A stretch of DNA of 64,000 nt from the IMG/VR virus record IMGVR_UViG_3300044673_000278, positions 187,694 to 251,693 of that record; one strand, given 5' to 3'. Below the pieces are notes generated by a model, which did not search any database, was not told where the DNA came from, and saw nothing but the letters and a program-made list of their open reading frames with translations. The translations under genes were made by a program, and so were the position numbers. The stretch is from a virus. Lineage: Duplodnaviria; Heunggongvirae; Uroviricota; Caudoviricetes. Positions 7,040 to 47,666 of the stretch are shown here, one piece after another; positions within the stretch are counted from its first letter, which is position 1, and the number at the start of each line of letters is the position of its first letter.

Positions 7040-7043
7040 CCAA

Positions 7044-7070
7044 AAGGCTCTTCGGAGCCTTTACTTTTCT
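7044..7070 (+). terminator. Rho-independent terminator ending the fibre operon
   Basis: Hairpin aaggctcttcggagcctt followed by a T-rich tract (tacttttctc). Confidence 0.6.
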
Positions 7071-9274: not shown

Positions 9275-10184
9275 CATCGCAGATTTAGACTGCATTTACC
9301 TAACATATGATGAACCTCAACGTGAAGAATTTTGGGTTAAAATTAAGAACATGGTGCCTTGGGCCAAACGGGTGGACGGTGTTAAAGGCAGCGATGCGGC
9401 TCACAAAGCGGCGGCCGCATCGTCGGATACAGATCGATTTATTCTCATCGATGGCGACAACATCCCCAATCCAGATTTTTTTAATCAAACGCTTGTTCTT
9501 CCTAACGAAGAATATGAGAACGCTGTGTTCCGTTGGCGAGCACGTAATCACATCAATGGACTGATGTATGGAAATGGTGGTTTATCTAGTTGGACTAAGA
9601 AGTTTGTTAATGATATGCAAACTCATGAACATTCAGATGGACGAGCGGAAACACAAGTGGAATTCTGTTTTGATCCCCTTTATTGGGCCATGCACGATTG
9701 TTTTTCTACGACCTATCCCAACGGATCGCCTTTCCAAGCCTGGCGTGCAGGGTTTCGTGAGGGTGTTAAAATGTGTCTGCAACGTGGCCGCAAGCCCACC
9801 ATCGAAGAGTTTAAGAATCAAGTTCTAAGAAACTTGGACAACTTGACTATCTGGCACAACGTGGGGTCAGACGTAGAACACGGCGAGTGGGCCATGGCTG
9901 GCGCACGCCAAGGCACATACATGACCATGCTCACAAACTGGGATCACACACAGGTACAGAACTTTGATGCCCTGGCCGAATTGTGGGAATCTGTAAAAGA
10001 TTCCAACCCACGTATTTTGTCCAATCAACTGGGCCCAGAAATTGGAACACAGTTAGCATTGCCTATGGCCATACTGGAATCAGAGCAAAGTGCATTCTTC
10101 AAACATCACTATCGATCAAATTGGCACAACCAAGGTGTCATGGTCAGAGAAATAGATGTTATTCGCAAGCTAGAAGGATGGTAA
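9261..10184 (+). CDS. GT-A-like glycosyltransferase-family protein, homologous to the C-terminal domain of the 1004-aa repeat protein
   Basis: [10 protein letters not shown] is a DxD-like motif. The segment ...[17 protein letters not shown]... closely matches ...TPWQAWRTAFREAIKLC... in ORF 26660-29674. Confidence 0.5.
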
Positions 10185-11563
10185 TGAACAAAGGCGACCA
10201 GAGCAAGTTCATGAGTTCAGCTGAACAAATGAAGCAGGATCTGGGTCCTGCTCTTTGTCTTGCCAAGTGGAAACAGGTTAGCTTTCACTTGCCTACTGGA
10301 CTCAACAACAGTTGTTACCATCCTCCACTGCATCAAATATCAGTGGAAGATCTAAAGCGCACTGGCGGCCTGCACAACACCGACCACAAGAAACAGCAAC
10401 GTAAATTGATGTTGAGTGGCCAACGCCCTAGTGAATGCCAATACTGCTGGAACATGGAAGACCTTGGGCAACTGTCTGATCGACACTACAGGTCAGGCGA
10501 ACCCTGGGCTGCTGTGGACTTTGAAAAAATTCGTAATTCAACCGGAGACGAAGATGATGTCATTCCCAGCTATGTTGAGGTTAATTTTAATAACGCTTGT
10601 AACCTTAAGTGCAGTTATTGTAGTCCCCAGTTTAGCTCTAGCTGGGGAGACGAAGCTAATCGTTATGGCGCTTATCCTACTTCCGTACCACACAATTCTC
10701 CAGAACATTTTACTGGGGCTAGACGTGTTATACCCGCTAGGGAAAGCAATCCCTACGTTGAAGCGTTTTGGCAGTGGTGGCCTACACTGTACCCGCAGCT
10801 TAGACATTTCCGAATGACCGGTGGCGAGCCACTGATGGACCGGAACACTTACAGAGTGTTTGACTATGTGTTGGCTCTTCCCAAACCTGATTTGCATTTA
10901 AATGTAACATCGAACTTTTCTGTGGAACCTGCACTGTTTGAAAAGTATTTGGACTATGTAAAACGACTGTGCAACACTCAAATTGAGCACTTCATGCAAT
11001 ACGTAAGTCTAGACTCTGGTCGTGGATTTCAAGCTGAATACATACGCCACGGTATGGATTCACAGCGTGTGGTCGGCAACGTCAATCGCTATTTGCACGA
11101 AGTTCCATATCGCAACAGCCTAACGTTTATTATCACAATGAACAACTTGAGTGTAACAGGGTTCCGCGAATACATGGAATGGATCTTGCATCTACGTAAG
11201 AGCTACTCTAAGACGTATCAACGTGTATGGTTTGACACACCTGTGCTGCGACAACCAGCCTGGCAGAGTCTGCAGATCTTGCCCGAAAGTTATGCAGCAA
11301 AATTAGAACAGTGCGCAGATTGGATGGCCACACAGGTCACTGCGGACGGGCTGCACGGCTTCCGCGATTACGAAGTACAACGTCTGCGTAGAGACATTGC
11401 ATGGATGCGTGAAGGACAAAAACAAAACAACGATACGGCCAAAGCAGACTTCTATCGTTTCTTTTCTGAACACGACCGTCGTCGAGGCACAGACTTCTTG
11501 CGTACTTTTCCTGAAATGAAAGCCTGGTGGGCAGAATGTGAGTATCATGCTAGGGCAGCATAA
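10184..11563 (+). CDS. Radical SAM enzyme, paralog 1, with an N-terminal Cys-rich twitch/SPASM-like domain
   Basis: CNLKCSYCSP is a CxxxCxxC motif and GGEPL is the SAM-binding glycine motif. The N-terminus reads C..W....TG...SCYHPP...CQYCW. Start set to the ATG at 10184 (TAATG overlap, GAAGGA SD). The ORF-track start at 9983 is an out-of-context 5' extension. Confidence 0.7.
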   Translation: MNKGDQSKFMSSAEQMKQDLGPALCLAKWKQVSFHLPTGLNNSCYHPPLHQISVEDLKRTGGLHNTDHKKQQRKLMLSGQRPSECQYCWNMEDLGQLSDRHYRSGEPWAAVDFEKIRNSTGDEDDVIPSYVEVNFNNACNLKCSYCSPQFSSSWGDEANRYGAYPTSVPHNSPEHFTGARRVIPARESNPYVEAFWQWWPTLYPQLRHFRMTGGEPLMDRNTYRVFDYVLALPKPDLHLNVTSNFSVEPALFEKYLDYVKRLCNTQIEHFMQYVSLDSGRGFQAEYIRHGMDSQRVVGNVNRYLHEVPYRNSLTFIITMNNLSVTGFREYMEWILHLRKSYSKTYQRVWFDTPVLRQPAWQSLQILPESYAAKLEQCADWMATQVTADGLHGFRDYEVQRLRRDIAWMREGQKQNNDTAKADFYRFFSEHDRRRGTDFLRTFPEMKAWWAECEYHARAA

Positions 11564-12659
11564 AATTGTTTGTGACGAATGGGCAGAAGTTTGGGATCTA
11601 CTCAAGCCCTATGCCGATGAAAGCTTCTGGCGCTGGACAGACGTTGACTTTGATCCTACAAAGATCTATATTGTAGGACGTGTGGTTCTCAAAGACAATT
11701 GGCAAGCTATTACAGACTTAGCTACTAAACACCCAGGGCGTATTGTGTTTTCAAATCCTGCCGAAGGCAGTGAAACCATACTGTTGCAGCTAAAACGTCT
11801 ACGTATCACAGAGCATGTGCGTGATGGACGCATAGGACTATTAACTTCAGGCGACTTAGAGCCTGGCTGGCACTATTGCAAAACAGACTGCTATTTTTCC
11901 AACATTGTGGAATATGATGAAAACCGGGCAGCACAAATACAGGCTGCTATGGATTACCGGCATCATCGTCCCTATCAATTTTTGTTCTTGAACGGCCGTC
12001 TACGGCCACACCGCAAATATCTAATAGATACTTTGAGAGACCTTGGACTGTTAGATCACGCACTATGGACCAATTTAGGTAGTCGTGTGGAAATGGGATT
12101 TACCTCATCGTTGACTACATTTCCAGTGGAGCCCATACGATTGTTGCCACCTGAGTATGAAATTGAACGTGCTGTACCTAACTTAACCACTGTAGAACAA
12201 CAGGGATTTGTCAAACATCAATTGTTTAACAATACCTGGGGCGATGCCATTGTAAATCCACGTTGTTACACGGACTCGTGGTTCAGTCTGGTAACAGAAA
12301 CTATTTTTGATTATCCTCATACATTCCGCACAGAAAAAATTTGGAAGCCCATACTGATGGCGCACCCTTTTGTAGTTGCTGCCAATCAGGGATACCTGCG
12401 AGACTTGCAAAACGCAGGATTTAAAACGTTTGGTCATTTAATAGATGAAAGTTACGATCAAATTGATCGCGCCGAAGTGCGAATAAGTCGTATAATAGAC
12501 ACAATGACCTGGCTGTGCAAAGATTCCAATGCTGCTGAATTCTGGGAAGCCAGCCGTGATATTTGTAAATACAATCAACAACATCTTGTGGAATACAATC
12601 GTCAACAGCGAGCTGAATTGCCACAACAACTCTTGACATATCTCAATGAACGATCTTGA
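11538..12659 (+). CDS. GT-B-like protein, paralog 1 (C-terminal Rossmann-like motif)
   Basis: C-terminal motif KPILMAHPFVVAANQGYLRDLQNAGFKTFGHLIDESYD is shared with ORFs 16857-17849, 24357-25547 and 25531-26661. Confidence 0.5.
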   Translation: MSIMLGQHKIVCDEWAEVWDLLKPYADESFWRWTDVDFDPTKIYIVGRVVLKDNWQAITDLATKHPGRIVFSNPAEGSETILLQLKRLRITEHVRDGRIGLLTSGDLEPGWHYCKTDCYFSNIVEYDENRAAQIQAAMDYRHHRPYQFLFLNGRLRPHRKYLIDTLRDLGLLDHALWTNLGSRVEMGFTSSLTTFPVEPIRLLPPEYEIERAVPNLTTVEQQGFVKHQLFNNTWGDAIVNPRCYTDSWFSLVTETIFDYPHTFRTEKIWKPILMAHPFVVAANQGYLRDLQNAGFKTFGHLIDESYDQIDRAEVRISRIIDTMTWLCKDSNAAEFWEASRDICKYNQQHLVEYNRQQRAELPQQLLTYLNERS

Positions 12660-13971
12660 ATTTCGCCGGGAAGTCCTGGACAAGTTAAGCGATAGTTTCT
12701 GTGCTGCAAAGTGGTATAATGCTACCATTTGGCTTGGTAGCGGCATGAGCACCAGCTGCCACCACCCGCCAGCTCACTTGGTGGACAAAGATAAAGTCCG
12801 GGCCAACCCTAGGCTGCTGCACAATACTCCGCAGAAAAAAGACGACCGACGCAAAATGTTGGCTGGCGAGCGCCCTGCAGGTTGCGAATACTGTTGGAAA
12901 ATCGAAGACATGGGACGCAATGCTATTTCGGACCGTGTGTACAAATCACGAATCTATCCCATAGAGGCCTTGCATGAAGCTAGAGCTACACCCGCAGATC
13001 AAGACGTCAACCTCCGTACTTTGGAAATTGCTTTCGATCGTACTTGTCAGTTTGCTTGCAGCTATTGCAACCCAGCTTTCAGTACGACATGGGTTAATGA
13101 TATTCGGCGTAACGGACCCTATAATGGTTTGGTTAGTGACGGCCGCAATCACTTCACTCACACTCATGACAGTAGTCAGCTCTATAAAATTACTGAGAGC
13201 AACCCATACATTGATGCTTTTTTCTCTTGGTGGGAGTCGGACCTACACCATACACTTCAGGAACTCAGAATCACAGGTGGAGAGCCCCTCATGTCCGGCC
13301 ACACCTGGCGACTCATTGATTGGTTCCGGGATAATCGCGGCCGTAGCCAGACTCGCTTGGCAATCAACTCAAATCTTGGTCCGCAGGTAGATATATATCG
13401 ACTGCTGGACTCTACTGAAGGCATGGATGTAGAAATCTACACTAGTCAGGAAGCAGTGGGCAAACAGGCAGAGTATATTAGAGATGGCTTGGATTACCCA
13501 CTTTGGCGTCAAAACGTCATGGCTTTGCTAGACGCGGGTCGCACTGTGCATGTTATGTGTACTATAAATGCACTGTGCTTGACTACACTGCCGCGCTTGT
13601 TGAATGAACTGGTAGAATGGAAACGCACATACGGGCGTGACCGTGTTAATTTCACTTTGAATATCCTACGCTTCCCGTCATTTCAATCGCCTTTGGTTTT
13701 ACCTGATCATTTACGTGAACAATTCAAAGGTGATTTGACACAATGGTTGGTCGATCACCGTGGCTATAGTTACATGCAAGAACACGAAATTAATCACACG
13801 CAACGATTAATAGATTATTTGGATGTTGTTAAAACTCCGCATTCAGATGCATTTGAAATGCCCAAGCTGCACAACGACTTTCGCGAGTTTTATCGACAGT
13901 ACGATCAACGCCGCGGACGAGATTTTGCTGAGTATTTCCCCGAATTAAAAGAATGGTATCAATCATTATGA
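12646..13971 (+). CDS. Radical SAM enzyme, paralog 2
   Basis: CQFACSYCNP (CxxxCxxC) and GGEPL motifs. N-terminal CAAKWYNATIWLGSGMSTSCHHPP...CEYCW. Confidence 0.7.
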   Translation: MNDLEFRREVLDKLSDSFCAAKWYNATIWLGSGMSTSCHHPPAHLVDKDKVRANPRLLHNTPQKKDDRRKMLAGERPAGCEYCWKIEDMGRNAISDRVYKSRIYPIEALHEARATPADQDVNLRTLEIAFDRTCQFACSYCNPAFSTTWVNDIRRNGPYNGLVSDGRNHFTHTHDSSQLYKITESNPYIDAFFSWWESDLHHTLQELRITGGEPLMSGHTWRLIDWFRDNRGRSQTRLAINSNLGPQVDIYRLLDSTEGMDVEIYTSQEAVGKQAEYIRDGLDYPLWRQNVMALLDAGRTVHVMCTINALCLTTLPRLLNELVEWKRTYGRDRVNFTLNILRFPSFQSPLVLPDHLREQFKGDLTQWLVDHRGYSYMQEHEINHTQRLIDYLDVVKTPHSDAFEMPKLHNDFREFYRQYDQRRGRDFAEYFPELKEWYQSL

Positions 13972-15650
13972 CTGTAGAACACACATTACAACATCTGCGC
14001 CAACAATATAATGTTGTAGCCGAAATTGATTTGAATTTTTGGAACGACAGTTATGAACAAAGTGTGGAAACTCTGATTCAAAAACTGCAACAAGCACATG
14101 CCCCTGCCTACACCGACAATCAACGCATTGTGTTTATACATCAACACGACTACTATGTTGGCCGCAGCACGGTTGGATTGATCTTAAAAAACATTCAAAT
14201 TCAATTGAACGAAGTTGATATCAGCAATTATTTTGCCATAGTGGTCAGCACTGCTGAAGATATCAGTGAGCAAATAAAGTCTCTTAAAGAAATCAGCACA
14301 GATTCTGTACCTGTGGGATTTGAATCAGCAGCAGGTGCTTTTGTTCGACATCAATTGGATCGCCATCCCTACAGCAGAAAAGAAGAATATCAATATGGAT
14401 CCAGCAATCCTATAAAAATTGACGTGAATGAATTGACTGACCGTGAACGTTTTTTGCTGACAGAAAGCCGGACATTTTGCATTTATCCTTGGATACACAT
14501 ACACGCTTATCCCACAGGCGAAGCCTATCCTTGCTGTCACGCTGAAATGAAGCCCGGTGTAGTGGGCAATTGTCGCACACAGACCTTGGAGGAAATATGG
14601 CAAGGGGAACCCATGCAGCGTCTGCGCGACGACATGCTAAACGAACGTGAACATCCTGCATGCACACGTTGTTACGAACAGGAAGCATCGGGGTTCTTTA
14701 GTGGTCGTAGATCTGCCAACAAGCATCACGGGCATCACATAAAGAAATTAGAAGAGAATCCGTTTGAATTAACGTATTGGGATATTCGATTCTCCAACCT
14801 TTGTAATCTACGTTGCCGCAGTTGCGGTCACATCTTCAGTAGCCAGTGGTATCAAGATCAAGCAAAACTAGCAGGACCAGAATGGAAACTCAATAATTCA
14901 GTGTTGAACTATGCTGGACGCACAGAAACGGACATGTGGCAACAGCTGGAACCACATCTTGATTATGTAGAACAAATTTACTTTGCCGGCGGCGAACCAC
15001 TGCTCATGGAAGAGCACTACAATATTCTAGAAGAATTAGTACGCCGTGGGCGCACAGATGTGCGATTGATCTACAACACCAATTTTACACACACCGACCT
15101 AAAAGGACGCAGTGTATTTGAATATTGGAAACAATTCAAGAGTGTGGCAGTGGGCGCTAGCCTAGACGACATGGGCAGTCGTGGGGAATACATTAGAAAA
15201 GGCACTGCATGGGGACAGGTTGAAAAGAATCGCGAAGACATGCTGCGAATTTGTCCCGAGGTAGACTTTTACATTAGCCCTACGCTGAGCATAATGAACG
15301 CACGTCATTTGCCCAAGTTTCATCGTGTGTGGGTCGAAAAGGGCCTAATTCGTGCGCAGGACTTGAATGTAAACATCCTACAAGATCCTGCACATTATAG
15401 AATTGACATTGCTACCCCAGAATACAAAGCAGAACTAACTGGCCTGTATCAACAACACGTAGCATGGTTGAAATCTGTAGGAGATCCGTTGGGCCGAGCC
15501 ACGCAGGGATTTGAATCCGCGATCACATTTATGAACGCCACAGACAACAGCCATTTGATTCCCAAGTTCTGGGAAAAAACCAATCAATTGGATGCTATTA
15601 GAAATGAAAGCTGCTTGGATATTATTCCCGAGCTAGGAGCCTTGAAATGA
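13968..15650 (+). CDS. Radical SAM enzyme, paralog 3 (longer N-terminal extension)
   Basis: CNLRCRSCGH and GGEPL motifs. N-terminal CIYPWIHIHAYPTGEAYPCCHAE...CTRCYEQE. Start set to the ATG at 13968 overlapping the upstream TGA (ATGA); the first in-frame ATG at 13953 is an alternative. Confidence 0.65.
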   Translation: MTVEHTLQHLRQQYNVVAEIDLNFWNDSYEQSVETLIQKLQQAHAPAYTDNQRIVFIHQHDYYVGRSTVGLILKNIQIQLNEVDISNYFAIVVSTAEDISEQIKSLKEISTDSVPVGFESAAGAFVRHQLDRHPYSRKEEYQYGSSNPIKIDVNELTDRERFLLTESRTFCIYPWIHIHAYPTGEAYPCCHAEMKPGVVGNCRTQTLEEIWQGEPMQRLRDDMLNEREHPACTRCYEQEASGFFSGRRSANKHHGHHIKKLEENPFELTYWDIRFSNLCNLRCRSCGHIFSSQWYQDQAKLAGPEWKLNNSVLNYAGRTETDMWQQLEPHLDYVEQIYFAGGEPLLMEEHYNILEELVRRGRTDVRLIYNTNFTHTDLKGRSVFEYWKQFKSVAVGASLDDMGSRGEYIRKGTAWGQVEKNREDMLRICPEVDFYISPTLSIMNARHLPKFHRVWVEKGLIRAQDLNVNILQDPAHYRIDIATPEYKAELTGLYQQHVAWLKSVGDPLGRATQGFESAITFMNATDNSHLIPKFWEKTNQLDAIRNESCLDIIPELGALK

Positions 15651-16864
15651 ACCTACCGCACGATAAATTTTGCGTATTACCGTGGATCAGCTTGGAAGCG
15701 TCGCCTATTGGCACAGTGCGCCCATGCTGCTTGGCCGATGACGAGATTTTAGATAATCAAGGCAACAAGTTTAGTCTACTCACTGCTGACTTCTCAGACA
15801 TACAAAACAGCGATAATATGCGCAGTCTAAGACAGCAATTTCTTGCCGGAGAGAAACCACAGACTTGTAGAAAATGCTGGAACGAAGAACGTGCAGGTCG
15901 TACATCAAAGCGTATGCATACCTTGGACAGACTCAAGCATGTGATTGGCAACACTGAGTGGACTGAGGATGCCAAACCCCTGATGTTCTTGGACTTGAAG
16001 CTGGGCAACATCTGCAACCTAAAATGCCGTATCTGCGGATCGTGGAGCTCTAGTCAGTTTGCCACAGAAGAAATCAATGACGCTCCACCAGAAGAAAAGA
16101 AGCATACATATGCTTATCAAATGTTACGTGCTGGTGCCTGGCCCAGAGAAAATCAACAGTTCTGGCAACAAATTGATCAACACTTAAATGATATTCGTTA
16201 CATTGAATTCACTGGTGGCGAGCCTTTTATGATCCGGGAACATTTCGCTATGTTGCAAGGCATTGTGGATCGTGGCATTGCTCATCAAGTTGAAATTCAT
16301 TACAACACCAATGGTACCATTTTCCCCGAAGAAGCCGAACACATTTGGAAGCATTTTAAAACAGTGGAAGTCGCATTCAGTATCGATGATGTAGGTGAAC
16401 GTTTTGAATATCAGCGAAGCAATGCTGTGTGGACAGAAGTGTGTGCTAACTTGGATCGTTTCCGTGATCTCAAAGAGATTTATCCCAATATTGTGCTGCA
16501 AGTATGCACCACAGTGAATGTGTTTAATGTTCGCTATTTGGATCAAGTAGCACATTGGATATACCGCAATCGAGAAAGCTTTAATTTTGTGTATTGGAAC
16601 ATGATGCACGATGCTTGGTATTTCTCCATTGCTACCTTGCCAGACACGGCAAAGCAAGCCATTGCTGACCACTTGCAAACAGCAGACATTCCTGCTGTGT
16701 ATCGAGAAGAAATCAATCGCATCATTGATTTTATGAATCGCGGTGCATCAACGGACGGATTTATGACACGCATGAAAATTCGTGACTTGGATCGCAAGCG
16801 CCAGCAAAACTTGGCCACTGTGGCTCCGGAATTTGCTGCACTGATTGAATACAGTTATGAGTAA
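15647..16864 (+). CDS. Radical SAM enzyme, paralog 4
   Basis: CNLKCRICGS and GGEPF motifs. N-terminal CVLPWISLEASPIGTVRPCC...CRKCWNEE. ATGA overlap with the upstream gene. Confidence 0.7.
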   Translation: MNLPHDKFCVLPWISLEASPIGTVRPCCLADDEILDNQGNKFSLLTADFSDIQNSDNMRSLRQQFLAGEKPQTCRKCWNEERAGRTSKRMHTLDRLKHVIGNTEWTEDAKPLMFLDLKLGNICNLKCRICGSWSSSQFATEEINDAPPEEKKHTYAYQMLRAGAWPRENQQFWQQIDQHLNDIRYIEFTGGEPFMIREHFAMLQGIVDRGIAHQVEIHYNTNGTIFPEEAEHIWKHFKTVEVAFSIDDVGERFEYQRSNAVWTEVCANLDRFRDLKEIYPNIVLQVCTTVNVFNVRYLDQVAHWIYRNRESFNFVYWNMMHDAWYFSIATLPDTAKQAIADHLQTADIPAVYREEINRIIDFMNRGASTDGFMTRMKIRDLDRKRQQNLATVAPEFAALIEYSYE

Positions 16865-17849
16865 AATCCGTTTCATTTACCAGCAAGGCAATTATCCCTG
16901 TTTTATAAACGGGGATATTCAGCGCATTGTTGAATCCTGGTACGACATTGAAGTGTATGATCCTGCCAAAACATACAATCCTCAGGACACTGTGATTCTA
17001 ATAACTCATGTAGAAGAAGTAGAAACAAGAAATAGCACTGGATGGTTTACCCCTTTTGAACAAGCTGGATTTAGAGTGGTAGTAGATCATTTGTGGGATA
17101 GCGATGTTGACACACCCAGCATGATCAAAAATGGTCGTTTAATTCTACGCAACGGTAATTGGGTTTGGTATAGAGAATGTATCAGATTCATTGAGCAAGG
17201 CTATCATACATATGAACCGCAAAGGAATTACAGTCATGCGTTCTTTATGCCCATGCACAAAACACGCTGGCACAGAGATCAAGCACAGGAACGACTGGCG
17301 CCTGTTTTGCAACACGCTTTATGGAGCTATGTTGAAAAAGGCATTCTTGTAGAAGGAGATGTAGATCATTCTACTCCTAGCAATATCTTTTGGGAATTCT
17401 ATGTCAATCCTGAGTGGTACAACAGTACATTTTTCAGTGTGGTATCTGAAAGTTACATGAGATCTGACCGGTGGGTTCAAAGTCCTTTTGTACCTAACTA
17501 TAGAACAGAAGTCAGTGAAAAGTTATTCAAGCCCTGTATGTTTTATCACCCCATGGTAGTGTATGGTTCATTGGGCACACTGGAATATCTGCACCGCGAA
17601 GGTTTTGAAACTTTTAGCAATCTCTGGGACGAAAGTTATGACACTGTGCCCACAGACCAGCAGCGCCACGATGTAGTGACCAAATTGATTCTGGACAATG
17701 TTGATAGATTTTTGCGAGGAGATCTTGGTATAGATTCGCTGACTCAACAAAAGCTCGAACACAATCACGCTAGAATATTTGACCACAACCTAGTGCTGCA
17801 AAGATTTGAACGTGAGATCATTGGTGACCTGCAAAGGTTCTTGGGATGA
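16857..17849 (+). CDS. GT-B-like protein, paralog 2
   Basis: C-terminal FKPCMFYHPMVVYGSLGTLEYLHREGFETFSNLWDESYD motif. First ATG at 16857 overlaps the upstream stop; the ORF-track start at 16845 is a TTG. Confidence 0.5.
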   Translation: MSKIRFIYQQGNYPCFINGDIQRIVESWYDIEVYDPAKTYNPQDTVILITHVEEVETRNSTGWFTPFEQAGFRVVVDHLWDSDVDTPSMIKNGRLILRNGNWVWYRECIRFIEQGYHTYEPQRNYSHAFFMPMHKTRWHRDQAQERLAPVLQHALWSYVEKGILVEGDVDHSTPSNIFWEFYVNPEWYNSTFFSVVSESYMRSDRWVQSPFVPNYRTEVSEKLFKPCMFYHPMVVYGSLGTLEYLHREGFETFSNLWDESYDTVPTDQQRHDVVTKLILDNVDRFLRGDLGIDSLTQQKLEHNHARIFDHNLVLQRFEREIIGDLQRFLG

Positions 17850-18448
17850 AACGAGTCTACGTCTGCGGTGATAGCTTTTGTGTGCCTGATCCTGACTACG
17901 GACCGTGCTGGGTTGATTATTTGGCGCAGCATAGATCTGTACATAATCTGGCACAGGTAGCAGCCACCAATTTAATGATTAGCATGCAAGTGGATCGTGC
18001 CATTGCAGAATCAGCTGATTTTGTTATAGTGCAAGGCACAGCATGCACTCGCAGTCAAACACGATATCAGGGCAAAATTGTACCCTACAGTTACCACACA
18101 GCCAGCGAAACAACCACTCCGTTTGACCGCACCAAACTCAGTGTACTCAAGCACTATTATGTTGAATTTTTTGATTTAGACTTGGCTATCTATGAGAATA
18201 AATGTATAATTGAAAATACCCTGCAGAAATTAGTCGACAGAGGTATTGATTTTTTGTTCGATCAAGGTGGATTCGAACATGCTAGCTTTGGCGGCGCCAC
18301 TGAGTATTTTACACAATACAGTCAATATCGCAGTGCAGTAAATCTGTGGGACCATGCACATACACGAGATTATAGGCCTTACTATCACATTGTAGATGAT
18401 GCTGTGCATCGCTCAGTGGCTGAATATTATACAAGGAAAACACAATGA
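17846..18448 (+). CDS. SGNH/GDSL-family hydrolase-like protein
   Basis: N-terminal VYVCGDSFCVP is a GDSx block I with the nucleophile Ser. 200 aa. Confidence 0.45.
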   Translation: MKRVYVCGDSFCVPDPDYGPCWVDYLAQHRSVHNLAQVAATNLMISMQVDRAIAESADFVIVQGTACTRSQTRYQGKIVPYSYHTASETTTPFDRTKLSVLKHYYVEFFDLDLAIYENKCIIENTLQKLVDRGIDFLFDQGGFEHASFGGATEYFTQYSQYRSAVNLWDHAHTRDYRPYYHIVDDAVHRSVAEYYTRKTQ

Positions 18449-19410
18449 AAAAAATTCTAGTGTGTGGCGCCGGGGGATTTATTGGTACCCATTTGGTTCG
18501 CAGTTTGCGAGCACAAGGCCATTATGTCATAGGTGCAGATCTGCACAGGCCTGAATTTAGTGCCACTGACGCCAACGAATTTCACATTGTGGATCTTCGC
18601 AACCAGCGACAAGTAACACGGCTAATCACAGCAGACATAGACGAAATATATCAGTTGGCAGCAGACATGGGCGGCGCAGGCTATATTTTCACAGGCAACA
18701 ATGATGCTGAAATCATGCACAATTCGGCTATCATTAATTTGAACATCCTACACGAAATGGTGTTTAAGAAAATCGAGAAGATCTTTTACAGTTCCAGTGC
18801 CTGCATTTATCCTGCATACAATCAAGAAGATCCTGACAATCCTGTAATGAGTGAGGAATCGGCCTACCCAGCAGCGCCCGATTCAGAATATGGATGGGAA
18901 AAGTTATTCAGTGAACGGTTGTATGCTACATTTGCTCGCAATCACGGCATAGATGTACGCATTGCAAGATTGCACAATGTATTTGGCCCAGAGTCGGCTT
19001 GGACTGGCGGCAGAGAAAAAGCACCTGCTGCACTGTGTCGCAAGGTAGCGCAGTGCGACAATCAAGGTATTATTGACGTTTGGGGCCCAGGCACACAAAC
19101 TCGTAGTTTCTTATATATAGATGAATGTATAGAAGGTATTCATAGACTTATGGCCAGTGATCATACACAGCCTATCAATATTGGTAGCAAAAGAATGATC
19201 AGCATAAATCAATTGGTGTTTTTAATTGCCGACCTGGCCAACAAGTCAGTGTCTATACGTAACATAGATGGGCCACGTGGCGTAATGGGACGCACCAGCG
19301 ATAATACTTTGATACAACAAGTCCTGGGGTGGGAACCACCGGACAACTTAGAACACGGATTAACGCAACTATACAATTGGATCAGTGAACAAATTTATGC
19401 AAAAGCCTGA
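18445..19410 (+). CDS. GDP-mannose 3,5-epimerase-like NAD-dependent epimerase (extended SDR)
   Basis: GAGGFIGTHL Rossmann motif, YSSSACIYP and a YGWEK catalytic YxxxK. The strings WTGGREKAPAALCRKV and TRSFLYIDECIEG are near-identical to plant GDP-mannose 3,5-epimerase. Confidence 0.75.
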   Translation: MKKILVCGAGGFIGTHLVRSLRAQGHYVIGADLHRPEFSATDANEFHIVDLRNQRQVTRLITADIDEIYQLAADMGGAGYIFTGNNDAEIMHNSAIINLNILHEMVFKKIEKIFYSSSACIYPAYNQEDPDNPVMSEESAYPAAPDSEYGWEKLFSERLYATFARNHGIDVRIARLHNVFGPESAWTGGREKAPAALCRKVAQCDNQGIIDVWGPGTQTRSFLYIDECIEGIHRLMASDHTQPINIGSKRMISINQLVFLIADLANKSVSIRNIDGPRGVMGRTSDNTLIQQVLGWEPPDNLEHGLTQLYNWISEQIYAKA

Positions 19411-20695
19411 CACACTGTGCCTAGCACCTTGGACACACACATATCTCAGTCCACAAACGGAGCGTAGAATGTGCTGTGCCAGTCGCGAGCCAGCACAGAA
19501 TTTTGAACAGTACATTGATACATCTGCTGGCACCGGGCGGTATATTCCGCTGACATTGGAACAGCACTGGAATTCAGAGCACATGCGAAGTGTACGCCGA
19601 AGAATGATGGCCGGAGAAACCTTGCCTGAGTGCGATGTGTGCAACAACAAACTGTTAAATACCTCAGTATATCGAGATTACTTTGGTCACCTCTTTGGAC
19701 ACAAACTAGATGAAGTCTACGCAACAACTACCGCTGACGGTTATACAACCATGGAGCCTGTGTCCTGGGACTATAGGTTCAGTAATCTCTGCAACTTTAA
19801 ATGTAGAACTTGCGGGGACATGCTCAGTTCTGCGTGGGAAAGCGAAGAGAAAACTCATGACATGGTTAATTGGGCAAATCCTAGTAATAACTGGATGCGC
19901 AGTGATGTTAGGCAGCAAATATCACAGTTTCAGGATACACAGATTGAGCAAGAATTCTCTGATGCTGTGGAACAGCATCGAGTAGAAGAAGTCTACTGGG
20001 TAGGCGGCGAACCCTTGATGTATGAACAACATTGGCGTTATATGAAACGCATTGTTGAATTAGGAGACGGAGGACGACTATATGCCAGGTACAACACTAA
20101 TCTCAGCAGGATTAGTTATCGCGGCTGTGACTTATATCGTGATCTGCTGGTACATGTACGCGACTGGCAAATTTGCGCCAGTATTGACGGAACAGGAACA
20201 ATCGGAGAGTACATACGTACTGGTCTGGACTATGGGGTTTTTCTAAAGAACTTCGAAGCTGGTGTGGCCGTACAAAAAAATCGTCGACAGATGAGATTGG
20301 ATTTTACGTTGACGCTGCCGGGCATGTTTGAAGTCAATGCAATACAACAGCTTGCTCGCACATACGATGTAGAGCTATTGGCCAAAGTGATCTTTAGTTT
20401 TACCCCAGATATTGCAATGAGTCCATTGGCTTTGCCCAGGCAGCTATTAGACGACTGGGTTGATGAGTTGGTACCCGAATGTACATCAGGGGCCATGCGC
20501 GATGTTCTACTACAGTTAAAGAATCGTCCTACGTTTGAACAACAATGGCCCGATCAATATCGTGCAGGGCTTGCAAAAGGCAAAGCTCGTGTGTTAAAAT
20601 TAGAAAGCATACGCACACAGTCAATAACCATGGGGGAAATATTGGCTCAGCGTCCAGAAGTATTGAAATGGTGGAACGAAATTGAACCCAATTGA
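19385..20695 (+). CDS. Radical SAM enzyme, paralog 5
   Basis: CNFKCRTCGD and GGEPL motifs. N-terminal CLAPWTHTYLSPQTERRMCC...CDVCNNK. Confidence 0.7.
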   Translation: MNKFMQKPDTLCLAPWTHTYLSPQTERRMCCASREPAQNFEQYIDTSAGTGRYIPLTLEQHWNSEHMRSVRRRMMAGETLPECDVCNNKLLNTSVYRDYFGHLFGHKLDEVYATTTADGYTTMEPVSWDYRFSNLCNFKCRTCGDMLSSAWESEEKTHDMVNWANPSNNWMRSDVRQQISQFQDTQIEQEFSDAVEQHRVEEVYWVGGEPLMYEQHWRYMKRIVELGDGGRLYARYNTNLSRISYRGCDLYRDLLVHVRDWQICASIDGTGTIGEYIRTGLDYGVFLKNFEAGVAVQKNRRQMRLDFTLTLPGMFEVNAIQQLARTYDVELLAKVIFSFTPDIAMSPLALPRQLLDDWVDELVPECTSGAMRDVLLQLKNRPTFEQQWPDQYRAGLAKGKARVLKLESIRTQSITMGEILAQRPEVLKWWNEIEPN

Positions 20696-21728
20696 AATGG
20701 ATCTCCGATCGGAGTCGGGCAATATATTAACTGTTTACATAGATGTAGCACACAACAGTCTAAGCCGCAAATGGGTCACAGCACTAAAGGAGTTAGTGGA
20801 AAATGATTACCATTTGGAAAAGAATTATTGCTGGTTTGGCTGGACTCAAAGCCGACGCAACGCCGAATACCTATGCGGATCCATTAACAGTAGTATCAAT
20901 GCTATTAATAGAGCTAACCTGGGTTATCGCATTGATTGCCCTAGTTACACAGTTTCTAACACAATAAAAGATGACTTGGATATCAATCATGAGCGCATGA
21001 ATTGGTTGCATCGATATTTTGAAGATCTGCAGGGTGTGTCGGGTAGAATGAGTCCCTACTACGAAGCAGCTGATGCAGAAACACGCTGGCATATACGCCA
21101 ACTCAATTTGTTGTGCCATGAATACGAAAGCCTGGTGCTGAGCATGCGCAAAGACGTACAGGCACCTGAGTGGAAAAGACCCAGTCAGCTGATGTGCTGG
21201 TTGCATGCACCGCGCTTTGAGTTGGATGAAGAAGACCACGAACTGTTTGGTATTGAAACCATTAATCGCAGCCTGGGTGGTGTGTATGTGGGGGTAAACA
21301 AAGCAGTAGGTAAACATCACTGGGAAGTATTCAATGATGAAGGTCGAGACAGTCGCATTGATGAACTAGTGACTACCACACTCAAAACTCAAACTGAAGC
21401 AGCAGGGGACTTTGACATTGAATGGGCTCGTGATCCGGGTGCATATCATTGGCAACAAGTAAAATTGCGAGAATTTCGCCAATGGCTGCTGGACAACGGT
21501 TTTGATCCCGACGACAAAAGTCTAACCATTGGACACCCCAAGGTTGCGCAGGTAGATCTTTTACGCAGTTTTGGCACAGAAGACTACCAACAAATCTGGA
21601 GCTTGTTGGCACAACACCTAGATGTATATAAAATCCGTGTAGACGGCTGCGAAGCTACATACAACTATAACTGGAGTGATCCAGATTATATGCAGCAGCA
21701 AGTGGCTGCAATCAAACAAGGAAAATAA
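20682..21728 (+). CDS. Hypothetical protein (348 aa)
   Basis: ORF with overlapping start inside the island. No recognisable motif. Confidence 0.45.
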   Translation: MNPIEMDLRSESGNILTVYIDVAHNSLSRKWVTALKELVENDYHLEKNYCWFGWTQSRRNAEYLCGSINSSINAINRANLGYRIDCPSYTVSNTIKDDLDINHERMNWLHRYFEDLQGVSGRMSPYYEAADAETRWHIRQLNLLCHEYESLVLSMRKDVQAPEWKRPSQLMCWLHAPRFELDEEDHELFGIETINRSLGGVYVGVNKAVGKHHWEVFNDEGRDSRIDELVTTTLKTQTEAAGDFDIEWARDPGAYHWQQVKLREFRQWLLDNGFDPDDKSLTIGHPKVAQVDLLRSFGTEDYQQIWSLLAQHLDVYKIRVDGCEATYNYNWSDPDYMQQQVAAIKQGK

Positions 21729-21827
21729 CATGGGCTGGATTCGAAGAATGATTGAGCGAATTCGTTTAGAAATTCGCTATCGTAAAAAACTCAAAGAACT
21801 GCGCAAGCGTGATCCATTCATTTACAA

Positions 21828-23306
21828 ATGAACATTCTTGGTATTTCAGCAGGATTTCATGATGCTGCCATTGCTGTACTCAGTGACTCTGGCGAAATAA
21901 GATTTGCCAGCCACAGCGAACGCTATAGCAAAAACAAGCATGACACAGACCTATGTGATGCTATCCTAGATGACATTGATCAGTACACCATAGGGCAGAT
22001 TGCATACTACGAACGTCCTTGGGCACGACAGTTGCGACAGCTATGGGCTGGTCAAGGCGTAGACTGGAATCAACTCACTGTGAAAGAAATTGTGCGCCAG
22101 CAAACTGGCTCAAGATTTCGCGGTGTAAAAGCTCGCGGATACAATCATCATCTATGCCATGCAGCCGCAGGGTTTCAAACATCGCCTTATAATCGTGCCA
22201 CAGTTGTTGTAATCGATGCCATTGGCGAATGGGACACAATAACAATATGGGGAGCAGAATATGATTCAAAAGGTCGTGCGCAGTATAAAAAACTTTGGAG
22301 TCGCGGTTACCCGCATTCAATTGGACTCTTCTACAGTGCAGCTACTAGCCGCGTTGGCCTACGCCCACTAGACGAAGAATACATACTCATGGGCATGGCC
22401 GCCTATGGTGAACGTGGATTCGGCAGTCTCATGCGTCAAGACCTTGTGGCTGATGCTTGGGAAATTGAGTTCAAGCAAAACCTGCACATGGGACTGGAGC
22501 AGAAGTATCTCAGTTATGTGGCGGACATGGACATTGCCGCTGGCGCACAAGATTTAGCCGAAGATCTCATCATGAATGTCATGCGTAGAGCTCGAGCATT
22601 TGGCTGGAGCAACAACCTTGTGTACATGGGCGGTGTTGCACTGAATTGCAGTGCCAATAGGAGGTTAGGTGAGTGTTTTGATAACATATGGATTATGCCT
22701 TGTCCTGGTGATGCTGGCTCTAGCCTGGGCGCCGCCGCACTGGCTTACGGTAGTAGGATTAATTGGCACGATGCTTTTCTGGGCCATGATATTAGAGGCC
22801 CTTACCCTGTTAATGCCATTCTGGACGAGCTTGTGTCTAATCGTATCGTTGGTGTTGCTAGTGGCCGTGCTGAGTTCGGTCCGCGAGCGTTAGGCAACAG
22901 AAGTTTATTAGCGGACCCTAGAGGTCCAGAAATCAAGGATCAAGTAAATGCAATCAAACGTAGACAAAAATTCCGACCCTTTGCCCCAGTTATTTTGGAG
23001 GAACTGGTTGATCATTACTTTGACATGCCTCGCAATTGGGATCGTAGTAGGTATATGCAAGTCGTCGCTACTTGTAGGCGTCCTGACTTATTTCCTGCTA
23101 TCGTTCACGCTGACGGGACTAGTCGTGTACAGACTGTGCCAAAAGATGGATCGGGAATACGAGAACTGCTTGAAAAATGGTATGTAATGACTGACTGCCC
23201 CATGCTGCTGAACACCAGCTTGAACATACGCGGTGAGCCTATGGTCAATGATCGATTAGACGCAGATAGATTTGAAAAGTTATACGGTGTACGAGTATGC
23301 AGTTAA
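21828..23306 (+). CDS. Carbamoyltransferase (NodU/CmcH/TobZ family)
   Basis: N-terminal MNILGISAGFHDAAIAVL is the Kae1/YgjD-like ASKHA motif of O-carbamoyltransferases. 492 aa. Confidence 0.7.
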   Translation: MNILGISAGFHDAAIAVLSDSGEIRFASHSERYSKNKHDTDLCDAILDDIDQYTIGQIAYYERPWARQLRQLWAGQGVDWNQLTVKEIVRQQTGSRFRGVKARGYNHHLCHAAAGFQTSPYNRATVVVIDAIGEWDTITIWGAEYDSKGRAQYKKLWSRGYPHSIGLFYSAATSRVGLRPLDEEYILMGMAAYGERGFGSLMRQDLVADAWEIEFKQNLHMGLEQKYLSYVADMDIAAGAQDLAEDLIMNVMRRARAFGWSNNLVYMGGVALNCSANRRLGECFDNIWIMPCPGDAGSSLGAAALAYGSRINWHDAFLGHDIRGPYPVNAILDELVSNRIVGVASGRAEFGPRALGNRSLLADPRGPEIKDQVNAIKRRQKFRPFAPVILEELVDHYFDMPRNWDRSRYMQVVATCRRPDLFPAIVHADGTSRVQTVPKDGSGIRELLEKWYVMTDCPMLLNTSLNIRGEPMVNDRLDADRFEKLYGVRVCS

Positions 23307-23309: not shown

Positions 23310-23336
23310 AAAAGCCCCGACAGGGGCTTTGTTGTT
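23310..23336. terminator. Bidirectional intrinsic terminator between convergent genes
   Basis: Hairpin aaagccccgacaggggcttt flanked by A-rich and T-rich tracts. Confidence 0.6.
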
Positions 23337-29674: not shown

Positions 29675-30332
29675 GCATTTTTCGGAATCAGAATTTATTT
29701 TAAATTTTGGTGACAGTTGGGCACATGGCGGCGATGTTGAACGAGATCAACGATATTGTTATTTGTTGTCGTGTAGTTTGAGAAAACAGTTAAAAGACTA
29801 CAGTGTATCTAGTAGTAGTGCTGGCAACATGATTTTACAGTTGCAGGAATTTTTAAACAACGATTACGATCCTAATCATAGTTACACTGCTTTGTTTTTT
29901 GTAACTGCACAGGAAAGACAGTTGTTGTTTGACAAACAAGGTCGTCCGGTTGATTTATCACCGCAATCAGATAGCGAATACTATCTAAAGTACTACAACA
30001 ATCGACTGGGCAATTTTTCTCTCAACAACACCTTGATTACTTTGCAAGCAATGTGCCGCAGATACAAAATCAATGATTACTATTTGTTGGGCTGGCAGTT
30101 GCCCACACTGTGGCACGAAGTAGACGTTACCAAATTTTATGATCATGCACAGAGTAATGCGTTAAACATGATGGCCGGTCCAGACGCACCCAGCTTGATC
30201 GATTTAATGACGCAGGGCCATCGTTGTTTGGTGTCGCCTACCAATGGGCATCCTAGCAAAGAGGGGCATAGGATGATCTATGAGCACTGGCTCAAGTGGA
30301 TACAGCAACCGCGGCCAGAACTTGATCGCTGA
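29667..30332 (+). CDS. SGNH/GDSL-family hydrolase-like protein
   Basis: N-terminal ILNFGDSWAHGG is a GDSx block I motif. Confidence 0.45.
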   Translation: MTKHFSESEFILNFGDSWAHGGDVERDQRYCYLLSCSLRKQLKDYSVSSSSAGNMILQLQEFLNNDYDPNHSYTALFFVTAQERQLLFDKQGRPVDLSPQSDSEYYLKYYNNRLGNFSLNNTLITLQAMCRRYKINDYYLLGWQLPTLWHEVDVTKFYDHAQSNALNMMAGPDAPSLIDLMTQGHRCLVSPTNGHPSKEGHRMIYEHWLKWIQQPRPELDR

Positions 30333-31407
30333 TGTATTCAACTTCAAGGTCTGTGAGTTCAGGGTACAGTGGCAAACTGAGAACTCTACGTGCTAGACTG
30401 GAACTCACAGCCAACATGTCGGGACCCGGCCACTGACGGTATACATCAATCTCGTGTATGGGACGCTCGTAATGCACACGAGTTTCAATCTTGCGATCTG
30501 CTAGCTTTTGTTTGACAGTATCACGACGGTCAATGTCAATCACAAACTTGTGATGTGCATGATTATGTGCGTTGCCTTCGTCGATCAAACAGCGTATCTT
30601 TGATCTATTGTCAAAACGTTCGCGCCAGTAATCTGATATTTTTGCACGCCGCGCCTGCCATTGATCAATGTATTGAGTTTTGACTAACATGGTAGCACAA
30701 TCTATTTCGCTCATGCGACTGTTGGTACCTGCATAGCCGTGCGTGGGTTTGCCGTTGTCTCTCCACGCCCTGGCAAATTCTGCAAGATCCAAACTGTCTG
30801 TGACCACAGCACCACCGTTGCCATAACAGCTTAGATTTTTCATGGGATCAAAACTGATAGCAGCAGCATCGCCTATGCGTTGGCAGTCATTGGACAACCA
30901 GTGTTGTGCAGCATCTTCGATCACAATGGTATTGGTAGCAACCCAGTGGTTCCAGGATCGCACATGTGCAGAATGTGTGATTGATTTGCCGTAAAGCCCT
31001 ACCAGCACCACAGCATCGTATTCTACCAACTGCGGAAACTTAGTATCGTCCATGATGCCATATGCATCGGTGTCAATAAAGTGAAGATCCCAGCCAGCAC
31101 GGATAAAAGCATTGGCAGTGGCCACGTAGGTAAAACTGGGCATGAACACTCTGGGGTGTTTGGCCAACTGTGTTGCCCAATACTCTGCAATGATTTCCAA
31201 GGCCTGTGTGCCCGAGTGGCAGGTCACAGCATACTTCACACGGTTCCGTTTGGCAAGCCAGTGCTCAAACTCCACAGTGTTGTTGCCGTTCATGAGAGCA
31301 CCTGAACGCAACACTTCATCGGTTGCGTTCAGTACTTGATCTCTCAGTGTGTTATACTGTTTTCGGAGACCAGTAAACGGAATTGTCAAGCCAGTCATAG
31401 TAGGCAC
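30292..31407 (-). CDS. DegT/DnrJ/EryC1/StrS-family PLP-dependent sugar aminotransferase
   Basis: Family-typical N-terminus. FDPMKNLSCYGNGGAV contains the PLP-binding Lys. 371 aa. Confidence 0.7.
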   Translation of the reverse strand: MPTMTGLTIPFTGLRKQYNTLRDQVLNATDEVLRSGALMNGNNTVEFEHWLAKRNRVKYAVTCHSGTQALEIIAEYWATQLAKHPRVFMPSFTYVATANAFIRAGWDLHFIDTDAYGIMDDTKFPQLVEYDAVVLVGLYGKSITHSAHVRSWNHWVATNTIVIEDAAQHWLSNDCQRIGDAAAISFDPMKNLSCYGNGGAVVTDSLDLAEFARAWRDNGKPTHGYAGTNSRMSEIDCATMLVKTQYIDQWQARRAKISDYWRERFDNRSKIRCLIDEGNAHNHAHHKFVIDIDRRDTVKQKLADRKIETRVHYERPIHEIDVYRQWPGPDMLAVSSSLARRVLSLPLYPELTDLEVEYISDQVLAAVAVST

Positions 31408-32323
31408 GGAAACCTTCTTTCACATCAACTTTGGGATCGTAACCAAGAATGGTACGAGCACGATCAATATTTAAGGCTCCGCGGCTGGGGAAGTCTTGAT
31501 CTCGATCTTGCACTTCAATGGTACCTTTGCCCACCATCTCTACAATCATTTCAGCAGCTTCCAGCAAGCTTACACTGTGAGATTTAGTGATGTTGTAGGT
31601 ATTGTTACGTGCCATAATCCGCGTAGCCGCAGCCACAATACCATCAGCTGCATCATCAACATACGTGAAGTCCAAAGTTTCTCCCGCTCCGTTGACTCGT
31701 AGCACACCACCACGCATTGCAGTGAGCATAAATTTTGCAACAACACGATCCTCCACATCCAAAGGACCGTATACCGCTGACGGGCGGATAATAACGTATT
31801 CCATACCAGTTCTGCGAGCATAGTCTTTGACAAGCCATTCTCCTGACAGTTTCATGATACCGTACTGTCCTTGCGGATTGCACGTATCATCTTCCAGCAC
31901 TTGATCTTCAAAGTCACCGTAGACCATAGAGCTAGAAATGTACACAAAGCGTTCTACTTTGTGTTTTTTGGCACTCTCGAGAAGATTGATCAATCCACGC
32001 ATCATGACTTCTGCGCCCCAACTGGGGTTGGCATTGACTACTTTTTGTCTAGGAAAACTAGCACAGTGAATGATCACTTCGGGCTTTTCTTTTTCTACAA
32101 TGGTGTCAATTTCGTACCCATCAGTAATGCACTGCTGATAATGAGTGTGAGGTTGCAGCTTCTTAAGACGCTCTGCCATAAGGTAATCGATCTCGCCTTG
32201 TGGGATAATACCATAGGTGGTGTGCGTGTCAATCACTGCCACAGTTTCGTCACGGCCTTGTAGTCGAGCCACAACATTGTGACCAATCAATCCGTGTCCG
32301 CCTGTTACTAAAAATTTACTCAT
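31352..32323 (-). CDS. NAD-dependent NDP-sugar epimerase/4,6-dehydratase (extended SDR)
   Basis: VTGGHGLIGHNV Rossmann motif, YISSSMVYG and YGIMK (YxxxK). Confidence 0.7.
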   Translation of the reverse strand: MSKFLVTGGHGLIGHNVVARLQGRDETVAVIDTHTTYGIIPQGEIDYLMAERLKKLQPHTHYQQCITDGYEIDTIVEKEKPEVIIHCASFPRQKVVNANPSWGAEVMMRGLINLLESAKKHKVERFVYISSSMVYGDFEDQVLEDDTCNPQGQYGIMKLSGEWLVKDYARRTGMEYVIIRPSAVYGPLDVEDRVVAKFMLTAMRGGVLRVNGAGETLDFTYVDDAADGIVAAATRIMARNNTYNITKSHSVSLLEAAEMIVEMVGKGTIEVQDRDQDFPSRGALNIDRARTILGYDPKVDVKEGFRAYYDWLDNSVYWSPKTV

Positions 32324-37295: not shown

Positions 37296-37477
37296 TCCTT
37301 GCCTAGTTGTTTTTCAGCTTCGGTTTGGCGTTCCCAAAGGATACTTTCGTACCCTTTGTAGAACAGCCATGTGTCGCACACAGCCAGCACACTTAGAAAG
37401 ATCCAAAAACCAAGCCACGCCATGTCACTTCTTCCGTTCTTCTTCGTAGTATGCATGAGCACCCCAGGGCGGAACAA
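37283..37477 (-). CDS. Hypothetical small membrane protein
   Basis: 64 aa with an N-terminal transmembrane segment. Confidence 0.35.
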   Translation of the reverse strand: MFRPGVLMHTTKKNGRSDMAWLGFWIFLSVLAVCDTWLFYKGYESILWERQTEAEKQLGKECQK

Positions 37478-38702: not shown

Positions 38703-38726
38703 GTCAGTCCTTTGTGTCAATGTGTT

Positions 38727-38755
38727 ATTATAGCACAATGCGAATTATTGATCAA
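38727..38755 (-). promoter_or_regulatory. Sigma70-type promoter P1: TTGATC-17-TATAAT with upstream TG
   Basis: Minus-strand reading ttgatcaataattcgcattgtgcTATAAT. Confidence 0.6.
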
Positions 38756-46402: not shown

Positions 46403-46404
46403 TC

Positions 46405-47180: not shown

Positions 47181-47198
47181 TCCTTATCCAACACATGT

Positions 47199-47227: not shown

Positions 47228-47229
47228 CT

Positions 47230-47636: not shown

Positions 47637-47666
47637 TTTGGGCTCCTTGTTTCTTACTATGCTCTA

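Follow-up and report, generated by a model that had tools for sequence, protein, structure and literature searches.

What would a GDP-mannose 3,5-epimerase (GME, also called GM35E; EC 5.1.3.18) do for a phage? An earlier note proposed that an open reading frame (ORF) at 18445..19410 of a 64-kb stretch of viral DNA, which we call the window, encodes a plant-type enzyme of this family, and that L-galactose or L-gulose may be a building block of the surrounding gene island's product. We ask here whether the ORF belongs to the GME family, where its relatives are found, and which neighbouring genes could use its product.

The gene and its operon

The gene occupies 18445..19410 on the + strand and encodes a 321-aa extended SDR of the GM35E/GME family with an ATG start. 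A Shine-Dalgarno-like AAGGA motif can be read from the sequence at 18433-18437 on the same strand, 7 nt 5′ of the ATG. The start codon shares an ATGA at 18445-18448 with the stop codon of the ORF before it, and the 3′ end of the gene is overlapped by a radical SAM ORF (19385..20695). Because of these overlaps with the ORFs on either side, we regard the GME gene as one cistron of a tightly packed operon. It is intact, and its surrounding GC content of 0.43-0.44 is unremarkable for the window. Both motifs quoted in the earlier note are found in the ORF: WTGGREKAPAALCRK occupies residues 186-200 (nt 19000-19044) and aligns to WKGGREKAPAAFCRK of Arabidopsis thaliana GME (AtGME), while TRSFLYIDECIEG occupies residues 219-231 (nt 19099-19137) and aligns to TRSFTFIDECVEG of the same enzyme.

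The operon consists of overlapping + strand genes, extends from ~7.1 to 23.3 kb and is bracketed by terminator-like hairpins. A GC-rich hairpin with an 8 bp stem, followed by a T-rich tail (7043..7062, + strand), is the likely upstream boundary, and a bidirectional terminator-like hairpin (23311..23330) directly after the last gene is the likely downstream one. Four N-terminal-twitch (N-twitch) radical SAM paralogues precede the GME gene at 9983..11563, 12646..13971, 13953..15650 and 15647..16864, all on the + strand, with 309, 288, 390 and 347 bits to the NCBIfam model NF033640; a fifth follows it on the + strand at 19385..20695 with 272 bits. All five ORFs, at 272-390 bits, pass the model's curated cutoff of 170 bits. 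Between the fourth paralogue and the GME gene lie a 334-aa protein (16845..17849, + strand), our candidate L-hexose transferase, and a 200-aa protein without an assigned function (17846..18448, + strand), which is kept beside GME throughout the cassette clade. The N-terminal VCGDSF of the latter presumably resembles block I of SGNH/GDSL proteins; Pfam, PHROGs and PDB gave no support for an SGNH hydrolase, a candidate raised by its GDS motif.

Downstream of the fifth paralogue, the + strand encodes a conserved 348-aa orphan protein (20682..21728), a very basic small ORF of 33 aa (21730..21831), for which related contigs also have a gene call of 33 aa, and an O-carbamoyltransferase of the NodU/CmcH family (21828..23306). 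The 348-aa protein is not a further glycosyltransferase, a reading that we tested: its model (pLDDT 78.6) combines a cyclophilin-like barrel and a helical bundle. The carbamoyltransferase assignment draws on the Pfam domains Carbam_trans_N and Carbam_trans_C (PF02543, 1.9e-35; PF16861, 6.3e-47), on its nearest solved relatives NovN (2.8e-48), GdmN (3.7e-40) and TobZ (8e-33), which are natural-product O-carbamoyltransferases, and on PHROG 1601, ‘Nol-like carbamoyltransferase’ (1.3e-87). Several further orphan proteins are encoded within the operon.

Identity of the phage

The phage setting given in the earlier note very probably holds, and the window is very probably part of an uncultured freshwater jumbo phage. 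The window encodes proteins with virion-type PHROG domains, a T7-type endonuclease I, an RNA ligase, ThyX, and a CobS-like ATPase with its vWA/DUF2201 partner. Freshwater samples have yielded metagenomic contigs of 150-349 kb that are nearly identical to the window or syntenic with it, one of them being IMG/VR UViG_3300034104_005687 (349,369 bp). No capsid or terminase gene lies within the 64-kb window, and the phage assignment is strong but indirect. A megablast of window positions 15000-23000 against 50,697 phage records gave no match, and the only links to cultured phages, namely the Ralstonia jumbo phage RsoM2USA and jumbo Vibrio phages, are weak. The window does not correspond to a known cultured phage.

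The encoded protein belongs to the GME family

We compared the protein (hereafter the window GME) with solved structures using phmmer against the PDB. The best matches are the plant GMEs 8sg0 and 2c59, together with mutants of 2c59, at E 5e-90 and ~305 bits, and the match spans residues 3-318 of the window GME and residues 31-343 of 2c59. By BLASTP, the window GME is 45% identical to AtGME over 317 columns; the characterized bacterial enzyme MfGM35E, from Methylacidiphilum fumariolicum, is 50.5% and BlmG 42% identical to AtGM35E (PMC6678494). As judged from these comparisons, the likeness to GME is far above chance and extends well beyond the two quoted motifs. Solved SDRs other than GME reach at most 94 bits, the score of the second-ranked PDB family, UDP-xylose synthase (1e-25), versus 305 for GME. 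Pfam assigns the protein only to the general Epimerase family (PF01370, E 5.6e-42, residues 4-247), no listed NCBIfam model reaches its cutoff, and no GM35E model is among the NCBIfam matches.

In AtGM35E, the family-defining residues are the S143/Y174/K178 triad, the C145/K217 acid-base pair, R306, R243 and N203 (PMC8787198). The triad, [ST]xnYx3K, carries out the oxidation and reduction of C4; the Cys/Lys pair serves the two epimerisations, its Lys being replaced by His in GMER; R306 acidifies the catalytic Cys and is a Lys in GMER; R243 binds the diphosphate; and N203 is a conserved Asn (PMC8787198). The alignment places S118, Y149, K153, C120, K192, R283, R220 and N178 of the window GME at these positions, so that eight of eight are present, and they are invariant across 124 aligned sequences that include the 120 closest homologues and two cyanophage proteins. 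An NAD motif, GAGGFIG, is found at residues 8-14. On sequence grounds, the ORF encodes a GME-family SDR with the full GM35E catalytic apparatus.

These data also discriminate between the GME family and two rival assignments. A GDP-L-fucose synthase (GMER/Fcl) would combine 3,5-epimerase and 4-reductase activities on GDP-4-keto-6-deoxymannose; its 3,5-epimerisation likewise employs a catalytic Cys, and the best NCBIfam match of the window GME is indeed GDPFucSynFcl, with an E-value of 7.6e-33. However, that match stays at 114 bits where the cutoff is 500, and GDP-fucose synthases in the PDB reach 76-84 bits (best E 1e-22) where GME reaches 305. The window GME has Lys192 where GMER has His and Arg283 where GMER has Lys (PMC8787198), it is only 26% identical to a phage GDP-fucose synthase, and none of the scanned window ORFs is a GMD that would supply the 4-keto-6-deoxy substrate. 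We consider the GDP-L-fucose synthase reading effectively refuted, with a residual probability close to nil.

A generic GalE or another nucleotide-sugar SDR fares no better. Homologues in GenBank are labelled ‘UDP-glucose 4-epimerase’ or ‘NAD-dependent epimerase/dehydratase’, and the Pfam result by itself would fit such an enzyme. Against this, the galE model TIGR01179 gives 79 bits versus a cutoff of 262, GalE-like enzymes in the PDB give at most 74 bits versus 305 for GME, and the Cys/Lys acid-base pair, for which a 4-epimerase has no need, is present and invariant. GalE labels on GM35E enzymes are common annotation errors (PMC8787198). The chance that the protein is a GalE-type enzyme is very slight, and this reading too is effectively refuted. 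The earlier note's choice of GME over generic GalE is borne out: the best matches are GMEs, and all of the GME-specific residues are there.

The family is widespread in bacteria and phages

At least 8000 proteins match the window GME at E ≤ 1e-20 in a word-indexed protein search. The best 120 of these are 76-96% identical to it, and several carry the JGI name ‘GDP-D-mannose 3′,5′-epimerase’. When protein clusters of 50% identity are searched through their representatives, 861 of them match at E ≤ 1e-30; the top 150 each score at least 240 bits, and 86 of these 150 retain all eight diagnostic residues. When one genome per bacterial species is searched, 428 stretches encode relatives, and the best 80 of them are 60-66% identical to the window GME and come from Bacteroidota, Ignavibacteria, Acidobacteriota, Alphaproteobacteria, Omnitrophota, Saccharibacteria and other groups.

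Viral relatives are likewise numerous. They are encoded by 223 IMG/VR stretches, at 57-90% identity, and by 197 matching records of the phage GenBank set, 85 of which are Synechococcus phages. The best cyanomyovirus relatives are 53-57% identical to the window GME by tblastn (57-59% in the tree alignment), and most of them are mislabelled ‘UDP-glucose 4-epimerase’ in GenBank. The window GME falls in PHROG 540, ‘nucleotide-sugar epimerase’ (5.5e-74). One cyanophage member, ORF123 of Synechococcus phage S-SCSM1, has already been annotated and discussed as a GDP-mannose 3,5-epimerase (PMC9602691). These bacterial, IMG/VR and phage counts do not bear out the earlier note's view of the enzyme as a rarity beyond plants and a few bacteria. 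On its own, the epimerase is an ordinary, widely distributed enzyme.

We next placed the window GME in a neighbour-joining tree of 40 sequences with 100 bootstraps, using a phage GDP-fucose synthase, a phage GMD and the window's second SDR as outgroups. AtGME and the bacterial and viral homologues form one clade with the window GME, and a long branch leads to the outgroups, to which the window GME is 20-26% identical; the split between the GME clade and these three proteins has 69% bootstrap support. Inside the GME clade, the plant enzyme is sister to the bacterial/viral group that holds the window GME. The label ‘plant-type’ is therefore loose: it stands for the GME family and not for an origin in plants, since the window GME lies on the prokaryotic/viral branch, with the plant enzyme as its sister.

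A cassette found at viral loci

As a single gene, the window GME matters little, and its context matters more. Contigs that encode a GME of 74-90% identity to the window GME retain the whole gene order. N-twitch radical SAM genes lie within 10 kb of GME in 24-26 of 80 IMG/VR loci; several loci with such genes also encode a carbamoyltransferase 64-69% identical to the window's, and one adds two B12-binding radical SAM enzymes. By contrast, N-twitch radical SAM genes or other cassette partners were found within 8 kb of GME at none of 80 bacterial loci. Because the partners occur at viral loci and at none of these bacterial ones, the association is a viral feature. Cultured phages yielded no homologues of the cassette's orphan proteins, and we found no literature on the cassette.

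A fucosyltransferase-like protein precedes the epimerase

The 334-aa protein encoded two genes upstream of GME has no Pfam family: at E ≤ 5 there was no Pfam match, Glyco_transf_10 included, except a spurious one to AurF, and a profile of its 40 homologues retrieved nothing from the PDB at E ≤ 10. A structure modelled from these 40 homologues (pLDDT 94.5, pTM 0.90) has the predicted fold of a GT-B glycosyltransferase. The closest folds to the model are T4 β-glucosyltransferase and the GT10 α1,3-fucosyltransferases, four of which are in the top nine fold matches (H. pylori FucT, 10.7; mango FUT13, 10.2; Arabidopsis FUT11, 10.2; human FUT9, 9.9). In a separate Foldseek comparison, the H. pylori α1,3-fucosyltransferase is the top match (E 1.2e-4, probability 0.98). 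The modelled GT-B fold thus resembles that of the GT10 enzymes (H. pylori 2NZW/5ZOI, human FUT9, plant FUT11/FUT13), and we call the protein a fucosyltransferase-like GT-B rather than a GT10 member because its sequence does not place it in that family.

The fold match is relevant because L-galactose is 6-hydroxy-L-fucose. It is relevant also because fucosyltransferases, including a plant α1,3-fucosyltransferase, use GDP-L-galactose (PMC8787198). Similar proteins accompany GME elsewhere: in a viral cassette of another arrangement (L039), the ORF directly upstream of GME has the same C-terminal donor-binding half (hhalign, 98.4%), and five further viral loci have weaker homologues of the 334-aa protein no more than 6 kb away from GME. 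The ‘DNA β-glucosyltransferase’ near the cyanophage GME of S-SCSM1 was considered as a homologue of the window's glycosyltransferase and rejected (hhalign probability 0.1%).

The source of GDP-mannose

The ManC that the earlier note suggested as a GDP-mannose source was not found among the Pfam-scanned ORFs of the 64-kb window. The scan covered 67 ORFs, comprising every plausible gene of at least 200 aa and leaving aside some ORFs of 101-181 aa, and among them there was no NTP_transferase (ManC), PMM/PGM (ManB), mannose-6-phosphate isomerase or true GMD. Within these 64 kb, out of a genome of ~250-350 kb, GME is not accompanied by the ManC/ManB genes that would make the pathway self-sufficient. 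Exact-protein look-ups upstream of the window found the 4842-aa protein only and no sugar-activation gene, and those at its 3′ end led to no sequence past the window. Two further sugar genes, the only others in the window, encode a DegT-family aminotransferase and a 4,6-dehydratase-like SDR at 30.3-32.3 kb on the opposite strand; they look like a separate amino-sugar pair. Because the window contains no ManC, ManB or GMD gene, we assume that the substrate of GME is the host's GDP-mannose pool.

Proposed mechanism and role

Judged by its Arabidopsis and Methylacidiphilum counterparts, the window GME would be an NAD+-bound extended SDR that draws GDP-mannose from the host pool. Tyr149, Lys153 and Ser118 would transiently oxidise C4 of GDP-α-D-mannose; Cys120, acidified by Arg283, and Lys192 would deprotonate and reprotonate C5 and C3; and the 4-keto group would be reduced back, giving GDP-β-L-galactose together with GDP-L-gulose. 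Judging from the gene context, the fucosyltransferase-like GT-B could then transfer the L-hexose to an acceptor, a hydroxyl of the sugar could be O-carbamoylated by the NovN/TobZ-like carbamoyltransferase, and further tailoring of the glycan could fall to the five N-twitch radical SAM paralogues. It is likely, in our estimation, that the gene encodes a functional GM35E working on host GDP-mannose, and that its L-hexose proceeds to the GT-B, followed by carbamoylation and radical SAM tailoring. It is plausible that the island's product draws on L-galactose or L-gulose, and the fucosyltransferase-like GT-B, encoded two genes before GME, and the sugar O-carbamoyltransferase encoded after it lend this some support.

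A broader reading, which we offer tentatively and hold to be possible rather than probable, is that GME is the entry to a virus-specific glycan-tailoring pathway of an uncultured jumbo-phage clade, in which an L-galactose or L-gulose sugar would be O-carbamoylated, modified by radical SAM enzymes and attached by the GT-B, without a described counterpart. The candidate acceptors would be virion proteins, among them the 4842-aa structural-like protein encoded just upstream, the host surface and phage DNA.

The enzyme's role could also have shifted within the family, acting mainly as a 5-epimerase that yields GDP-L-gulose, as proposed for BlmG in bleomycin biosynthesis, or acting on a GDP-hexose already modified by the neighbouring radical SAM enzymes. 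The carbamoyltransferase in the same operon mirrors the blm sugar genes: the bleomycin disaccharide consists of L-gulose and 3-O-carbamoyl-D-mannose, and BlmG is 42% identical to AtGME (PMC6678494, PMC8787198). In the viral cassettes, GME is flanked by five to seven radical SAM genes, and GM35E is known to release a product mixture that includes GDP-L-gulose and GDP-D-altrose (PMC8787198). However, the catalytic set of the window GME is the same as in enzymes with GDP-L-galactose as the main product, no sequence feature marks a gulose-biased enzyme, and a BlmC-like NDP-sugar synthase was not found in the window. We judge such a shift unlikely and retain the conventional GM35E reaction on GDP-mannose as the preferred reading.

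The GME opens a biochemical way, through a defined GDP-L-hexose donor that can be assayed, into a viral operon that is widespread, entirely uncharacterised and rich in radical SAM genes. Should the operon prove to place a carbamoylated L-sugar on virions, on DNA or on the host surface, this would be a new kind of phage-encoded glycan chemistry. The operon could also supply L-sugar-handling enzymes, which are wanted biocatalysts in the GM35E literature.

Comparison with known systems

The window GME is collinear over its full length with AtGM35E (PDB 2C59/2C54), at the 45% identity given above, and with MfGM35E; its eight functional residues are alike, and on this likeness the same chemistry would be expected. 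It differs from the plant enzyme in lacking both the ~28 aa N-terminal and the ~34 aa C-terminal extensions, and in having a GxxGxxG rather than a GxxGxxA NAD motif. Unlike plant GME, it is virus-encoded, has no link to ascorbate synthesis and branches with bacterial and viral sequences.

The bleomycin genes offer a parallel at the level of the pathway. As in the window, a GME homologue, an O-carbamoyltransferase and a glycosyltransferase are co-encoded (BlmG, BlmD and BlmE/F), and the pathway's product combines an L-hexose with a carbamoylated hexose. In contrast to the bleomycin genes, the window has no NRPS/PKS aglycone and no BlmC-like nucleotidyltransferase, and its radical SAM enzymes have no blm counterpart. 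The pairing of GME with a carbamoyltransferase recalls the L-gulose/3-O-carbamoyl-mannose of bleomycin, and the analogy would extend to pathway logic only.

The cyanomyovirus GMEs (S-SCSM1 ORF123 and P-TIM68, PHROG 540) are also phage-encoded and have the same catalytic residues, and their islands likewise hold a carbamoyltransferase and glycosyltransferases, together with methyltransferases. A GME in a phage was already anticipated by these cyanophage annotations, and the ‘UDP-glucose 4-epimerase’ labels on such phage genes are again shown to be wrong. Unlike the cyanomyovirus islands, the window combines an orphan GT-B and the orphan 348-aa protein with five N-twitch radical SAM paralogues, and its phage lineage is jumbo and non-T4-like. 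Nothing described explains the surrounding cassette, and the known carriers of GME, which comprise plants, algae, many bacteria and cyanomyoviruses, now gain a jumbo-phage lineage.

Gene content of the epimerase operon

The operon that carries the GDP-mannose 3,5-epimerase-family gene (GME) contains five tandem paralogues of NCBIfam family NF033640, radical SAM proteins with an N-terminal twitch domain, all encoded on the plus strand (window 9983–11563, 12646–13971, 13953–15650, 15647–16864 and 19385–20695). Of 80 viral loci, 24–26 carry NF033640-type genes no more than 10 kb from the GME homologue; none of 80 bacterial loci has one within 8 kb of it.

On the same strand, positions 20682–21728 encode a 348-aa protein that has 4821 homologues in the database, carries no Pfam domain and lacks any match among cultured phages. 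Its AF2 model (pLDDT 78.6) shows a helical bundle inserted in a cyclophilin-like barrel, and the weak fold matches of this model include McbB and KslB, which are of the cucumopine synthase/Pictet-Spenglerase type. A very basic 33-aa small ORF (MGWIRRMIERIRLEIRYRKKLKELRKRDPFIYK; 21730–21831, plus strand) precedes the carbamoyltransferase gene, with the end of the former and the start of the latter overlapping as ATGA; in the related contigs L001 and L004–L006, a 33-aa gene is called at the equivalent position.

The sugar/radical-SAM operon lies directly 3′ of the gene for a 4842-aa protein, whose C-terminal end is the first ORF of the window (37–3468, plus strand) and which continues upstream of it (L169 1–9202). 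The protein has faint matches to FG-GAP and to PHROG families, the latter of tail-fibre or baseplate type, and could be a target of glycosylation.

Other genes in the window

Two minus-strand genes adjoining ThyX (32676–33368) make up a second sugar-nucleotide pair and encode a DegT/PseC-like aminotransferase (30292–31407) and a dTDP-glucose 4,6-dehydratase-like SDR (31352–32323), both matched below the curated cutoff; the pair suggests a separate 4-amino-6-deoxy-sugar branch.

The minus strand also encodes a DUF2201 metallopeptidase/vWA protein (37425–38738) paired with a CobS/MoxR-like AAA ATPase (40845–41930), a combination common in large phages, and, near this pair, a homologue of TctC-like periplasmic solute-binding proteins (43406–44314), which is unusual in a phage. 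An RNA-repair-like gene set is also on that strand (45265–49207), comprising a T4-type RNA ligase (45265–46203), an HD-domain protein (46632–47180), an AAA_33 kinase-like protein (48267–48740) and a dual-specificity-phosphatase-like protein (48728–49207). At 49000–52000 and 57000–60000, the GC content falls to 0.37–0.41, versus about 0.46 for the window, and the ORFs there are mainly small or unannotated.

Related GME proteins and cassettes

Among representatives of 50%-identity clusters, P0361, P0362, P0365 and P0367 are fusion proteins of 665–769 aa, in which the GME domain is N- or C-terminal. In L039, a differently arranged sister viral cassette, the stretch between its GME and carbamoyltransferase genes encodes two DUF6071 proteins together with two radical SAM enzymes of the B12-binding class B (L039 11851–13782 and 14448–16754). 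This gene content suggests that a sugar is heavily C-methylated or rearranged.
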